DNA of 64,000 nucleotides from Saccostrea echinata (Eukaryota). The stretch's first letter is position 1. Each line of letters starts with the position of its first letter. Shown in pieces: positions 6,867 to 20,933 of the stretch. The notes beneath the pieces were generated by a model. The model did not search any database. It was given only the letters and a program-made list of their open reading frames with translations, and was not told the DNA's origin. The stretch is taken from positions 3,782,001 through 3,846,000 of the forward strand of contig NW_026889777.1 of the NCBI RefSeq assembly GCF_033153115.1, read 5' to 3'. The translations under genes were made by a program, and so were the position numbers.

Positions 6867-7727
6867 GTAAGAAGGCTAAAATAGACTAGAGAAAATGTTT
6901 GAAGCACATTTCAGTTGAGTACAACTGATGGTTGCAATTTGACCTGTAGTTTTGACCTTTAACTGACACAATGGATTGACCACATTTGACCTTCATCTTT
7001 AAAGTGTTCAGGCCAGTCTATATACGGTAATAATGACCAAATTCAATGGTGAGGACATTATAAGAAGTCTGCCTCTAATCTTTAATAACTAGAGTATAAA
7101 GTGCAAAATAAGCTACACTTTAAAAGCGAATAGGCTTATAAACAATTTTTTCCACAAGAAATTGGTTTCTAAACAATTTTCTTTATTAAAAAGCTCATAT
7201 TAATAGGCATCTATGATCTTTCACAAGAAGGTGTAATTTACAAAATACCTTTTTCCCTAAAATTAAAGAAATGAATTAAAAATTAAAATTCTAAATTTTA
7301 AAAGAAATGTGGATGTTCATGGACATCATAAAGAATTTGGGAACTTTATAAAAGAGTCTGCTACTTTAACTCGCATTAATTTACATAGATTTTACCCACA
7401 TCTCCTGCTTACATCTTATGATCTAGGAAATAGATTTACTTCAGGATAAACATTCCTTCCATTTTGACTTTATCATCTGGGCAACAGAATGAAAACATTG
7501 TCCAACATGCCCAATTAAAAATGACCCACAACAAGATTTCACAATGCCTGTACAACTACAAGTCTTGAAATGCACTAAAATTATGGTAAGAGAGGAGAGT
7601 GTAACTTGAATAAAACTTAAGTTACTGCGAATTAAATTTGAACTGCTTTCACACGGAGAATTTAATGTGAATTAATTTAAATTGAATTAATTTATTGCGC
7701 ATCAAATTACATCACATTAGCTCTGTG

Positions 7728-8581
7728 TAGTGCTGGGCTGATTATCGCCGATGATCAACTGTCAGTCGTTAGGAGCTCTTTGGTGCTACTAATTGATTAC
7801 AAAATAAATGTCGCCGACATCACTGACAAAAATAAAATCGTAATACTTTAATTTTATTACCAAATCCATATGAATAGAGTTTTAAAGTAGTGATGAATGT
7901 TTAAAATGTTGAACGTATCTATGCCATGTTGATATTTTTACCGCCATGATTGAATATAGGGTCAGACTAATAACAGAAAAACGGACAATATAAAGAGGTT
8001 TTAATATATACAGGAAAACATTAGTAGTCCAGACAATCTGTAAACGTAATTACAATCAATGATACAAGTCCAAATTCTGGATAACTACAATTTAAACTTG
8101 TAATTCCAAGAAATAAAAAAAATGTAATGCAAGATGGGACTAATATCAGCAGATTTTCAGTAACAGCTTATTCAGTATTTTTAATGAGAATTTTTTTGAA
8201 GTAAATTCTCATTCAATATACTTTTTTTAAGAAAGGTAAAGAAATCCTAAAACATATATATTTCAAAATATATTGATGAGAGGCAGATGAAAACAGGGGT
8301 AAGAATTTGCTCGAGGAATGGGCTGTATGTTTATTTTGACTTTACATGACTATTTCCGGTGCTATTTTCCACTTTATCAAAAGAAAAAAAATTAATAAAC
8401 ATTTATGAATATAATTTATTAAAGGATTTTTTTAGTGAAAATCTGAACTTAAATCTGAATAATTTTAATTTTTTTTATTAAATCATTTAAAGTTAAAAAT
8501 TCAATTATAAACAATTATTAATCGATTATGTGCAGCTTATTATTACTGATAATTGATTATGATACCGATTTTCCATCACTA
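7728..8581. mobile_element. Non-autonomous hAT element
   Basis: TAGTGCTGG...CCATCACTA termini; 8-bp TSD GCTCTGTG; inserted into an older Harbinger-like remnant (about 7625-8984, ending GTGTGAACAGGGC). Confidence 0.8.
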
Positions 8582-9168
8582 GCTCTGTGTGAACGCTTAG
8601 CAAAGCTAATTCGAATTTAATTCTGGCGCATGTGTAATGGCTTAATTAAGTCACATGCCACATGTCAATGGTCAGATACAGGTGTTTATGCTATTTTTGA
8701 GTGAAAAACAAAGAAAAAATATGTTGATCTCCAAAAATATGTACAGACACTATAACATTATGTCAAATGGATCTGCTCTGCATAAGGTGACGGTATCTGA
8801 TAGTGATGTCATAATTGCCCTACGGAGTAGCCTTTCTGTAGAAATAAAATTTTAATGTAAATTAGTTTACTTCAAATTAACTGTTGTGTGAACGCAATGT
8901 AATGCGCATTAGTGTAAATTGTATTTTACTTCGCACTATTGTACTGCGAATTCAATATGTAATGCGCATTTGTGTGAACAGGGCATAATTTTTCTCTAAT
9001 TAATTGGTCAAAGGTCACCAGATGATCATTTTGGTAATCTAGGTTCATCTCATTTTGTCTTAACACAAGTTAGGTAGGAAAGGATGAGGGAACAATTGCT
9101 ATATTTGTGAATTTTTTTCCTTGTTAATGAACAGATTTCAGTGTCCTTTTAAATCTTAACCTAGAGTA

Positions 9169-9294
9169 TGCTGTTTGTGAGGTGTTGAATTCAGTTTGGG
9201 TTTATGCACTTAAGTAGAACAGCTAGATAAAATGCCTTCTATCACGCCAGGGAGTTTTCTTTGAATTTTCTGGGTCTGGCATTGGGCTATACGT
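9169..9294 (+). ncRNA. Candidate box H/ACA snoRNA, copy 1 (CDK12 intron 3)
   Basis: Hairpin GCUGUU..AACAGC; H box AGAUAA 9225-9230; second hairpin with upper stem CCAGGGAGUUU/GAAUUUUCUGG; AUA box variant at 9289, 15 nt after the upper stem; paralogous to copy 2. Confidence 0.5.
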
Positions 9295-10269
9295 AAACAG
9301 TGGTAAAAAGTTCAAGACTTTTGGGAGATCAGAATGCTTAGTAGGTCCTGAACACAGGTACTTGTGGAAAGAGTCCCCCCTCTCCCTGATATACAACCAC
9401 AGGACTTGTACAGTCAGCTAGTTAAATTATATTAATCACACTTGTATATATATCATGTTTACCATATATGAAAAATATAGCGAAGACCCTTAAATAGCCA
9501 TTCCATACAAAAAATATACACGATAAGAGAGAAATCTGTATGTTTACATTGTACCCCCGCTGGTCTTTCTGGGTTGAACAGCATGTTTTTATTTCATTTC
9601 AACCTAAAATGCCAGATTTTATTACATAAGATTATCAAATAACAGAAGTCAAAAATGTTTGAAACTTGTTTCTAACACAGAGTTGTGAGTGGGGTTATGA
9701 CATTACCTTACACCAAGGTAATTTTGGCATGCTCAAGAACATCGGTAGAAAAAATGTATAATCTATGTCCATTTCATAACTTTCAGTATTTCCATTAATG
9801 CATAAATAGGCGTAAAATACACATAAAAATATATAAATACCCACTTCCAAAAAAATTTGGTGTCAAAATAACTAAAAAAAAAATTCAAGCTTTCAAAATT
9901 TTCTGACCAATTCAAAACAAAACCGGAAATCCAAAGAAAATTTGTCATGTTTGCATACTTCAGTTTGGCTTTATCAGTAAGACTGGAGATGTTTTCAAAA
10001 CTTTGGATCAATAACGCCCAAGTAGTCGACTAATAGTTTTGCAAAAGATTCAGCAATTTGCAGAAGTTGGCTTTGTAAAGATGTATCCTCCATTGACAGA
10101 ATCGGTAAAATGTGTCAATAAACAACAAACACATTTAATTTTTTAATATTATTTATAAACATAAAATTAAGATGCAAGCAAAACCAGAATTCATTTTAAC
10201 TGTCTAACATTCTCTTGACTCCCAAAATTTATTTCAAAGAGTAAAATAACCCTTGATTTTCAAAGTTGG

Positions 10270-10970
10270 CAGAAACACTGACAAGGTCATTTAGGAAAGA
10301 TCACTGGCAGAAAAACATTCATCACCTGTCCTGGCCATATCTTTTAAATTGAGCAACTTTGAAAGATGATGCTTATGACTCAAGGGTGTCTTGACCTTGA
10401 CCAAACATCTTTAAGGCAAGTTAAAGGTCAATGATAAGAAAAAGTATTTATTTTTGTCTGGTCCATAAGATTCTAATGGAGAGACATTGGTAGAACTTTC
10501 CTACTTCATGATAGATTACTTATGATTTGAGTATTTGGGCAAGTTGAAGATATCTGGCAGAGAAATGTTAATTTCCTAACTTAGCCATATCTTGTAATGG
10601 AAAAACATTGGAAGCTAGTATTTGACAGAAAGATTGCATACGACACAAGGGTGTTTTATGACCTCAGTCTGAGGCCATTTGGGCAAGTTGAAGGTCACTA
10701 GCAGAAAAAGTGTTTAATTTGTGTTAGATCCATTTATTTCTTCCTTGAGAAGCATTGGAAATTCATACTTGACACAAAGATTACTTATTTTGTGAGTGTG
10801 TTATGACCTTGACACGGTCATTTTTTGCAAGTTCAAGGTTTCTGACATTAAAAAATGTAAAATTAGTGTCTAGTCAATAAATTTATATAAGAGAAATGTG
10901 TGAACAATTGAAAAAAAAGAATGGGCAGTGGAGAGTATCATTTGTGAGCTCGTTAACAGTATCTAGAGTT
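10270..10970 (+). repeat. Degenerate ~145-bp tandem satellite (Helentron-associated type)
   Basis: Four to five recurrences of GACCTTGAC..GGGCAAGTT(G/C)AAGGTCACTGGCAGAAAAA..AAACATTGGAA. Confidence 0.55.
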
Positions 10971-11077
10971 CATTGTCAGAGTTTAGCCATGTTTGTCAGT
11001 CTTTCTTTTACCTTAATATGGGCAAGTTAAACCTAAGTACTATGGAATTGTGGGATTCTATACATCCAGTTGTTCTC

Positions 11078-11202
11078 TGCTGTTTTTTGAGGTGGTAAAG
11101 CTTCCATGTTTTATACACTCAAGCAAACAGCAATATAAATGCCTTCTTTCATCATGGATAATTTTATCTTGAATTTTCTAGATCTGGAAGTAGGCAACAA
11201 GT
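11078..11202 (+). ncRNA. Candidate box H/ACA snoRNA, copy 2 (CDK12 intron 3)
   Basis: Hairpin UGCUGUUU/AAACAGCA with upper stem UUGAG/CUCAA; H box AUAUAA 11133-11138; hairpin UGCCU..AGGCA directly followed by ACA 11197-11199; 125 nt. Confidence 0.55.
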
Positions 11203-11534
11203 GTATGTAATTTGAGATGTAAATAAAATTACTCTCAATTTTTGAGTACAGTAGGTCAGGAGTGTATGAACATAAATAGGCATCTTTTCCCCTTAAGTTC
11301 TAACATCATGAAATATGCCTTTGTGAAAAGTTCATAATTGTACCCTCGTATACCTCAAAGACCTTTCTTAAATGATGTCAGACTGAGGTTTATATGTATT
11401 AATATGAAAACATAATATTCTTGAAAACATATTGAGCAATTGTAAATGATTGAAACAAATGACATGGATTGAAGAAAGAATTGGAGAATGGGGTCTTGAG
11501 GTTTTGTAAATTGCCCTGACGTAACTTAGTGCTG

Positions 11535-12670
11535 TTTTTATGCCACCATAATCAGAGATTTTGAGGCATAGTGTTTTGGTCTGTCTGTTCACAAAAACTT
11601 TAACTTTGCCCACAACTTTTGAATGGTTGGTGCTAAGACTTCATATTTATCATGTGTATTCCTTGTGACAAGATCTTTCTTTGGGTATCAACATTTCTGA
11701 CCTTATGACTTTGACCTACAAGTTTGACTTATTTTTTTGTAAAACATGAACCAATTCTAACCTTAGCAAATACTTCTGAACCAGGGATCGACATTAACGG
11801 TTGTCCAATTGCCCGGGGCAAGTAAATTCCCAGTTCGGGCAAGTGAAAATGCCAATGTACTTGTCCGATTGGGCAAGTGAATATTTCCGATAGAAACATT
11901 TTTTTTTCCAAATCTTGCATTAGTTTTAAACGAAACAATAACACTTTCCGCCAAGAACATATCAAGAATAGTTTCTTAACATGAATAGTTTATTTTTTCA
12001 CTCACAGAACACCAGTTATTCTCTGCACACAATGTATTCTGATCAGGATATGTATGTTTCAAAACATGGCAACTGTTTTCCTTTAGTGTGGCCTCAGTTT
12101 TCCAGAGAAAAAAATCAAAATAATATATATATTTAAGATGTAAATTTTATTTTAAAGAAAATATATACTGCTGCATGGCAGTGCGAGTTTTCAGGATAAA
12201 TGAAAGGACAGTGGTATACATGTACAGTATTTACAATTGTAGGATCAGCGACACATCAACATTTTTTCTTGGCAGTTAACGTGCCGATAGAAAGTACTTT
12301 ATCACACATAAATTAAATTACCCGTATTTTCTTCTTTCTAAGGTTTGGGCAACCAAGTTTTGCATTCAGACAAGTCAAAATTTGAGTTCACTTGCCCATA
12401 GGATAAGTGAATATGAAAGTTAATGTCTATCCCTGTGAACACTTGGTGATAGGGCATTAATATTTCACATGTATATTCATTTTGACATGAGCTTTGAGTA
12501 CCATATTATTTTTGACCTTGTGACCTTGACATTAGAGTTTGGCCTACTTTTGAAAAACTTATTTTTGACATTGTGACCTTGGCTTTGGAATTTGACCTAC
12601 TTCTTAACTTTTATCTTAGCCATGAGCCACCATACAAAGGCATCAGTTTTTCATAAACACATTTTGTTTG
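11535..12670 (+). mobile_element. Non-autonomous Helentron/Helitron-type element (interrupted by the 11782-12435 insertion)
   Basis: TTTTTATGCCACC...GGCATAGTGTTTTGGTCTGTCTG 5' end; TGACCTTG core repeats; GGCATCAG...AAACACATTTTGTTT 3' end. Confidence 0.55.
11782..12435. mobile_element. Non-autonomous DNA transposon, CAGG termini, 5-bp TSD (hAT5-like)
   Basis: CAGGGATCGACATTAAC...GTTAATGTCTATCCCTG; TSD TGAAC on both sides. Confidence 0.85.
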
Positions 12671-12948
12671 AGTTGGTAAATCTACTAGGACTTTTACATT
12701 CATGTGGCTACATTAACACATAAAAGCATATATTCTACTTGTTTGTAGATTTCCTTATTATAAGGGTATAAGTGTTATTTTGTTTACGTATGTTGTCTTC
12801 CTTCATTTGATAAATATATAGGATAGATCATAAAAGAAAACTTCTAAATTTAATTATTAGTTCCTCAGAATGTTTGAAAGCATACAGTTGTATTTTTATG
12901 TAATTTTCAATGTGTTAGATATCATAGAACTTTGAATATCTATTTTAG

Positions 12949-13085
12949 GATTTGCCAGAAGAGACGGTTAGATGAGAGGGTCAAAGGTGACTGGGGAGAG
13001 AGATGTGTCGACTTGTTTAACATTATAGAAATCATTGGGGAGGGAACTTACGGTCAGGTGTACAAGGCTAAAGACACCTTCACAG
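12949..13085 (+). CDS. CDK12: CDK12/13 exon 4 ([10 protein letters not shown], Gly-rich loop [12 protein letters not shown])
   Basis: Manual translation [45 protein letters not shown]; ttttag| and |gtaagt boundaries. Confidence 0.95.
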
Positions 13086-20644: not shown

Positions 20645-20933
20645 TGTGGTGTTCAGACGGGTTCTATTGTCACTGGCCAGATGACTTGGTAGAGCACCTG
20701 AATGGAGATTCAGTAGGTTTGAATCCTGGTATGTCTCCCTTATCTGTTACATTTGGTGCTGTGCCATCGATGCTCTTGAAGTGACAGGTGAAAGTCCTGC
20801 TAGAAAAGAGTCTGGGTTGATTTGATCATCAGAGGCCAGATAGCTCAGTTGGTAGAGCACCTGACTGGAAATTCAGGGGACCAGGGTTCAAATCCTGGTC
20901 TGGTCCATTGCATTTTTCTCCCTCATCTGTTAA
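20645..20933 (+). mobile_element. TRIM-like mini LTR element with a tRNA-like cassette in its terminal repeats
   Basis: Two direct repeats (about 20645-20751 and 20821-20933); first ends TGTTACA and is followed by PBS-like TTTGGTGCTGTG; related PBS/internal/PPT pieces at about 22067-22170 and 22490-22596. Confidence 0.6.
20834..20906 (+). pseudogene. tRNA-like sequence inside the TRIM terminal repeat (not a canonical tRNA gene)
   Basis: GGCCAGA/TCTGGTC acceptor stem; A box TAGCTCAGTTGGTAGAGC; B box GGTTCAAATCC; 8-nt anticodon loop and a T-stem mismatch. Confidence 0.6.

Follow-up and report, generated by a model that had tools for sequence, protein, structure and literature searches.

Two similar segments of about 125 nt lie within a single intron of a CDK12/13 gene of Saccostrea echinata, raising the question of whether they are small nucleolar RNA (snoRNA) genes and, if so, which uridines their RNAs would modify. 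The segments, copy 1 (9169..9294, +, 126 nt) and copy 2 (11078..11202, +, 125 nt), belong to a window of 64,000 nt, the whole stretch of DNA analyzed here, and all positions below refer to it unless another genomic locus is given. An initial annotation had described them as paralogous, intronic box H/ACA snoRNA-like RNAs in CDK12, a description supported by the way they fold, by their boxes and low copy number, and by their retention in a relative. From the computational evidence, it is hardly in doubt that both segments represent real snoRNA genes, and it is quite probable that they are paralogous intronic box H/ACA snoRNAs with a predicted role in guiding rRNA pseudouridylation.

Two paralogous segments in one intron of CDK12/13

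The host gene, located on the + strand, consists of an RS-rich N-terminus and kinase exons, and its downstream kinase exon matches CDK12 (E 1e-31) and CDK13 (E 2e-31), with the next family at 6e-12. Judged by sequence, the host is a CDK12/13 gene of the invertebrate type; the CDK12 kinase governs the processing of long transcripts. The host intron (6867..12948, +) is delimited by GT/AG borders and continuity of the reading frame, and an exon piece from a related species, organism A, begins at 12949, directly after its end. It is the third coding intron, a number that counts coding exons (between coding exons 3 and 4) and that a 5′ UTR exon could shift. The placement in CDK12 intron 3 proposed at the outset is borne out by these borders, the frame, and the CDK12/13 kinase exon match. 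Both copies are in sense orientation to CDK12/13, 1.9 kb apart in the one intron, with their ends 3.65 kb (copy 1) and 1.75 kb (copy 2) upstream of the 3′ splice site.

In a global alignment, the two copies are identical in 95 of 132 columns (72%), and their local alignment scores 92, compared with best values of 32 for copy 1 and 41 for copy 2 among 1256 other tiles of the window. The 100-nt flanks of both copies are at the level of shuffled sequences (251/300 and 61/300 shuffles align as well), in agreement with the original picture of similar segments embedded in diverged flanks. An 8-mer, AGTAGGTC, recurs about 46 nt downstream of each copy (approximately 9340-9347 and 11249-11256) in 3′ flanks that have otherwise diverged, reflecting either residual homology or chance.

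A 19-nt pattern common to both copies has two matches in the 923-Mb genome, both at this locus, and none for the reversed control. A DNA search of the genome with each copy returned only the copy itself and is insensitive, as neither query recovered the other copy; the count of two is thus a lower bound, and diverged copies may exist elsewhere. The possibility that the segment is a high-copy dispersed repeat, a concern attached to the initial annotation, is ruled out by the two matches in 923 Mb.

A possible decayed third copy, unproven and amounting to a 5′ hairpin remnant, is located at 12664..12702 (+). It is covered by a match (12665-12773, 23 bits, E ~0.02) to R1, a weak model built from a two-sequence alignment, with the 5′ hairpin one column out of register and only 19 pairs. 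The stretch 12664-12702 is identical to copy 2 at 30 of 39 positions, a score that unrelated tiles reach as well, and its fold is no better than that of shuffles. This low-scoring resemblance to the 5′ hairpin, covering 12664-12773 (+) in all, begins just past a high-copy repeat. In metagenomes, a pattern based on the pockets hit 118 loci, spread over 15 of the collection's 64 parts; the same weak model gave no match at E <=1 on 100 of these 118, and the loci are accordingly taken for chance matches rather than homologs.

Fold, boxes, and pocket geometry

On the + strand, both segments fold into two hairpins around an H box, with a z-score of -3.06 for copy 1 (1/200 shuffles as good) and -5.59 for copy 2 (0/200), while the antisense strands fold at chance level (-0.57 and -1.43, respectively). 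Box H is AGATAA at 9225..9230 (+) in copy 1 and ATATAA at 11133..11138 (+) in copy 2, no change being listed for either in organism A, and the 3′ boxes are ATA plus 3 nt at 9289-9294 (+) and ACA plus 3 nt at 11197-11202 (+), which define the predicted 3′ ends of the RNAs. Each copy displays the hairpin-hinge-hairpin-tail arrangement of the class, a box H of the form ANANNA, and an ACA or AUA 3 nt before the predicted end, so that the architecture first proposed, with boxes at the sites then indicated, holds for both.

With the helices registered by hand, 12 of 33 stem pairs are not the same in the two copies; pairing is nevertheless kept in both for 10 of these 12. The earlier impression that the differences preserve pairing is confirmed by this count; of the five two-sided changes, four belong to the upper part of the 5′ stem, the region with the least certain hand register. 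Two details of the initial annotation had to be revised. The UUGAG/CUCAA pairing, taken for a stem, largely represents self-pairing of the pseudouridylation pocket in the free fold, and the 3′ spacing of copy 1, given as 15 nt, shortens to 13-14 nt when every possible pair is added to the upper stem.

Measured between the box and the first base paired with the target, the spacing is 14 nt for the 5′ pocket of copy 1 and 13 nt for the 5′ pocket of copy 2 and both 3′ pockets. Published descriptions place the pocket of H/ACA RNAs about 14 nt (PMC5778458) or 14-16 nt (PMC6800473) from the box. The 13-nt spacing of three pockets therefore weighs mildly against the guide reading, and these pockets would reach 14 nt if the closing G-U or A-U pair opens.

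Conservation in a related species

Of 24 listed runs, five, all labelled organism A, contain 2 of the 14 words taken from copy 2, and mapping of organism A at 80% likeness revealed homologs of both copies. That organism A is a different species is evident from exon 4, which differs at 12 of 132 positions. The copy 1 homolog aligns over 9177-9291, where 8 of 115 nt differ; it comes from a contig of 204 nt with unaligned ends, the lower stem being still recognizable in the loose 5′ end, and the conserved block stops at the predicted RNA ends. The copy 2 homologs from three runs carry 11/153, 9/136, and 12/158 differences (92-93% identity) and reach 20-30 nt into the flanks; at 91% likeness, the listed differences in copy 2 include no insertions or deletions. 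Unique bins of the intron, for example, 8900-9043, 9764-9907, and 11348-11491, have zero depth from organism A at 80% likeness, and the other covered bins are high-depth repeats. Both copies are hence kept in the one relative compared, at about 93%, with unique flanks unaligned, which bears on the lack of conservation that the initial annotation had held would count against it; given the short contigs of organism A, the homologs are known as sequence, and their placement in CDK12 is not readable from them. Each homolog is nearer to its own copy than copies 1 and 2 are to one another, from which it follows that the duplication probably predates the split from organism A.

The differences were placed only away from contig ends, leaving three of the eight in copy 1 and some of those in copy 2 unplaced. 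In copy 1, the placed changes are at 9212, 9213, and 9216 (5′ pocket), 9257 (U-G to C-G), and 9261 (loop); in copy 2, they are at 11097 (A-U to G-U), 11104 and 11105 (loop), 11153, and 11196. The C>A change at 11153 disrupts pairing, as predicted, at the foot of the upper stem in the 3′ hairpin of copy 2 and is an exception to a pattern in which changes keep pairs or fall in loops or in the 5′ pocket of copy 1.

High-copy interspersed repeats common with organism A occupy much of intron 3, including 9541-9575, 10340-10870, 11590-11700, 11780-11900, and 12325-12680 by organism A depth, which sums to as much as 5e5 (<=5e5) in one run. In raw oligo-dT reads from organism A, one run (X8) has 2 reads on copy 2, with depth past the predicted 3′ end, and two others (X9 and X10), mapped at 91% likeness, have none on either copy. 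Such a repeat-rich setting, together with the lack of a detected RNA in oligo-dT runs and short contigs that are unable to show the mature species, could suggest that the segments are non-functional fragments of inverted or dispersed repeats, or DNA or splicing elements that resemble snoRNAs by chance. This explanation is very improbable: two copies were found (a lower bound), the fold is strand-specific, and conservation is exon-like and at single-contig depth. Moreover, the conserved block of copy 1 ends where the RNA is predicted to end, and the 5′ pocket of copy 2 matches a known Ψ site with 13 pairs.

Predicted targets of the pockets

Potential targets were sought among the 1489 U sites in the genome's own 18S, 28S, 5.8S, U1, U2, U4, U5, and U6. 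The 5′ pocket of copy 2 (11084..11125, +; strands 11084-11090 and 11120-11125) forms 13 pairs (6+7), including one G-U, around 18S U35, which is its top site and is matched as well by none of 100 shuffles. No change in these strands is listed for organism A. The corresponding pocket of copy 1 (9174..9217, +; strands 9174-9180 and 9211-9217) shows a weakened match to the same uridine, with one mismatch and three G-U pairs, and 76/100 shuffles are as good. Taken jointly, the 5′ pockets score 50 at 18S U35, with the next site among the 1489 at 25, and this score was reached by 1/300 dinucleotide shuffles (1/200 in another run). The pocket limits were set from the fold after a match by eye, making these shuffle p-values optimistic. 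In an unconstrained pocket scan against 18S and 28S, in which the H box of copy 1 was one base off, 18S U35 was not first and nothing rose above shuffles.

Human 18S rRNA carries Ψ at position 34 in the same sequence context (PMC6182160), and the 18S of this genome is longer by one base upstream of it, so that U35 here equals human Ψ34. The bipartite pocket rule calls for at least 8 pairs, with at least 3 on each side (PMC6800473); the 5′ pocket of copy 2 has these, and the 3′ pockets have the pair count without significance. It is very likely that copy 2 is a guide for 18S U35, as predicted from this complementarity. The suggestion that the two RNAs may be orphan guides is thus not supported, since the 5′ pocket of copy 2 is complementary to 18S U35 beyond chance and a site in 28S can tentatively be proposed for the 3′ pockets; the search of rRNA and snRNA that had been recommended for finding a target picks 18S U35 for the 5′ pockets.

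For the 3′ pockets of copy 1 (9237..9283, +; strands 9237-9243 and 9276-9283) and copy 2 (11144..11191, +; strands 11144-11150 and 11184-11191), the best joint site is 28S U2189, scoring 50 with the next at 42, and 62/300 shuffles are as good. Each copy contributes equally (25 vs 25); considered singly, copy 1 places 28S U2189 first, and copy 2 places it third under looser pocket limits. Copy 1 offers 7 Watson-Crick pairs on one side plus 4 on the other; in copy 2, one side is interrupted by a U-U mismatch and the opposite side gains additional pairs. Pocket mismatches near the target have been reported to slow modification in vitro (PMC6800473). The tentative assignment of 28S U2189 as the target of the 3′ pockets is favored slightly over its absence. 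The aligned human position is Cm2811 (PMC6182160), assigned to the box C/D snoRNA SNORD95 (PMC4914119). SNORD95 is comparable in target position and unlike the present RNAs in class and chemistry, and the human base is C where this genome has U. No paper mapping Ψ at the equivalent of 28S U2189 in an invertebrate was found among those listed for Drosophila Ψ maps and bivalve rRNA pseudouridylation.

A competing account, possible but less likely than not, retains 18S U35 for copy 2 and denies the 3′ hairpins the U2189 target, making them orphan, structural, or aimed at an RNA beyond the scan (for example, U11, U12, U7, or mRNA), with copy 1 being a conserved orphan. It draws on the frequency with which shuffles reach the joint 28S score, the short 3′ side (4-5 pairs) and 13-nt spacing, the position of U11, U12, U7, U4atac, and U6atac outside the scan, and the strand of copy 2 with the U-U mismatch, which is unchanged in organism A all the same. 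What speaks for 28S U2189 is that it is the top site both for copy 1 by itself and for the two copies jointly, and also the 7-pair Watson-Crick strand of copy 1 (9237-9243), which is likewise unchanged in organism A.

A role as scaRNAs is not supported. The CAB box motif is UGAG, and the predicted apical loops contain none; in addition, the best joint scores on the snRNAs scanned (U1, U2, U4, U5, and U6) are 25 and 39, versus 50 for rRNA.

Relation to known snoRNA families

At gathering scores, Rfam reports only a tRNA across the whole 64-kb window and no family at either copy, in line with the initial annotation, which had assigned none. The tRNA gene match (RF00005, 52.8 bits) lies at 20834-20906 (+), downstream of CDK12. 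Below the cut-offs, the best match of both copies is SNORA35 (HBI-36, RF00566, clan CL00034), with 34.7 bits (E 2.8e-4) for copy 2 and 24.5 bits (E 0.005) for copy 1, both missing the gathering cut-off of 39 bits. Given that the match extends over the full model and that size, hinge, and lower 3′ stem are alike, the copies could be divergent SNORA35 orthologs doing the SNORA35 job, for which 18S-566 and 18S-350 are the reported targets (PMC6984369; PMC4914119). In addition to the scores, however, the fold-constrained pockets argue against this, as equivalents of 18S-566 and 18S-350 are absent from the best-scoring target sites of both copies. A 566-type pocket is instead found at a separate locus, L010 (G000:C45:5303101-5303218, minus), whose 5′ pocket forms 7+5 pairs with 18S U524, presumably the 566 equivalent, at 14-nt spacing. 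SNORA35 orthology is therefore improbable, and a distant common ancestry of copies 1 and 2 with SNORA35 is possible. L010 itself scores 31.5 bits with RF00566, below the cut-off, and has an H/ACA-shaped fold of 132 nt (-47 kcal/mol), which extends about 17 nt further 3′; it is likely the functional counterpart of SNORA35 in this genome. A search of the genome with RF00566, in which 44 of 33095 candidates were scored, missed copy 2.

By target, the nearest known systems are SNORA50 (ACA50, RF00407) and SNORA76 (ACA62, RF00598), the guides for this site in amniotes, in which the 5′ hairpin is directed to 18S-34 and the 3′ hairpin to 18S-105 (PMC2653536; PMC4914119), and chicken GGgACA3, hosted by CNOT1, with a pairing of 6+6 nt at 18S-34 (PMC2653536). 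Copy 2 resembles them in its 5′ hairpin, with 6+7 pairs, and is unlike them in that the 3′ pockets pick another site and, compared with GGgACA3, in its CDK12 host. 18S-105 is absent from the best-scoring sites of the 3′ pockets; by eye, the first base of the pocket is unpaired with the base 5′ of that U. No SNORA50/76 match is listed for either copy, nor is there one for the 5′ hairpin of copy 2 alone at E <=10, and RF00407 (cut-off 90 bits) gave no match in the genome among the 45 scored of 52748 candidates. SNORA50/76 may thus be regarded as the functional counterpart for the 5′ half of copy 2, a likeness in predicted target site. Neither copy belongs to SNORA50/76, by 3′ target and score, or to SNORA35, by score and pockets.

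Among the papers listed on oyster and bivalve snoRNAs, CDK12 as a snoRNA host, and SNORA50, none describing copies 1 and 2 was found. Missed by Rfam at curated cut-offs, both RNAs are likely unannotated genes, probably H/ACA guides of a known class. The H/ACA guide mechanism is itself textbook, and copy 2 provides a candidate, testable guide for 18S Ψ34 outside vertebrates. According to one study, Ψ at 18S-34 is highly conserved, SNORA50/76 were not found in Xenopus, and other guides may serve there (PMC6984369). The present prediction is in keeping with the idea that the modification site is more ancient and more stable than its guide snoRNA.

Proposed maturation and fate of the two copies

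According to established H/ACA biology, the RNAs of copies 1 and 2 would be released from the spliced CDK12 intron, assembled with dyskerin, NOP10, NHP2, and GAR1, and trimmed to 3 nt past the ACA, and would then direct the conversion of a U about 14 nt above the box. As for their history, one dual guide may have been duplicated inside the intron before the lineage of organism A separated, after which copy 2 would have retained the 18S pocket while the 5′ pocket of copy 1 drifted and this copy was kept for its 3′ hairpin.

Within the fully reported interval of copy 1 (9208-9261), changes in organism A affect 3 of 7 pocket positions and 2 of 47 elsewhere (Fisher p 0.012, post hoc and from one species). 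Compared with copy 2, the pocket changes are 3/7 versus 0/14 (p 0.026) or, for the matching strand alone, 0/7 (p 0.19), again post hoc. By eye, the changes in copy 1 remove 18S pairing adjoining the target. Because its pocket is mismatched here and carries three changes within 7 nt in organism A, copy 1 has probably lost the 18S job. A full reciprocal division of labor is not favored, as copy 2 equals copy 1 on the 28S site.

Paralogous snoRNAs are reported to switch or lose a pocket by point mutation (PMC1687206; PMC6984369), as in E2/ACA6 and the SNORD19/SNORD69 duplicates, where one target is kept and the other changed or lost. Copies 1 and 2 differ from these pairs in sharing one intron, 1.9 kb from each other, in a CDK12/13 gene of the invertebrate type. 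One of these sources warns that function is not deducible from conservation alone (PMC6984369). The most far-reaching proposal, which we regard as rather doubtful, is that the copies represent an invertebrate H/ACA family, absent from Rfam, that couples 18S Ψ34 with a Ψ at the position of 28S Cm2811, with duplicates dividing the work and copy 1 losing its 18S pocket. If true, base, chemistry, and guide class would all have been exchanged at a single rRNA site, Cm2811 with SNORD95 on one side and Ψ on the other. If the 28S site holds, lineages would differ in having Ψ instead of Cm at the same position of rRNA, and copy 1 would show a duplicated snoRNA in the course of losing a pocket.

Some snRNA genes of this genome were found to be arranged in tandem. 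U1 and U6 genes alternate in a unit of about 2.15 kb (G000:C29:39326426-39348009, also on C159 and C313), which joins Pol II and Pol III snRNA genes, and U2 genes form an array whose repeat unit measures about 2.2 kb (G000:C80:602956-634186).
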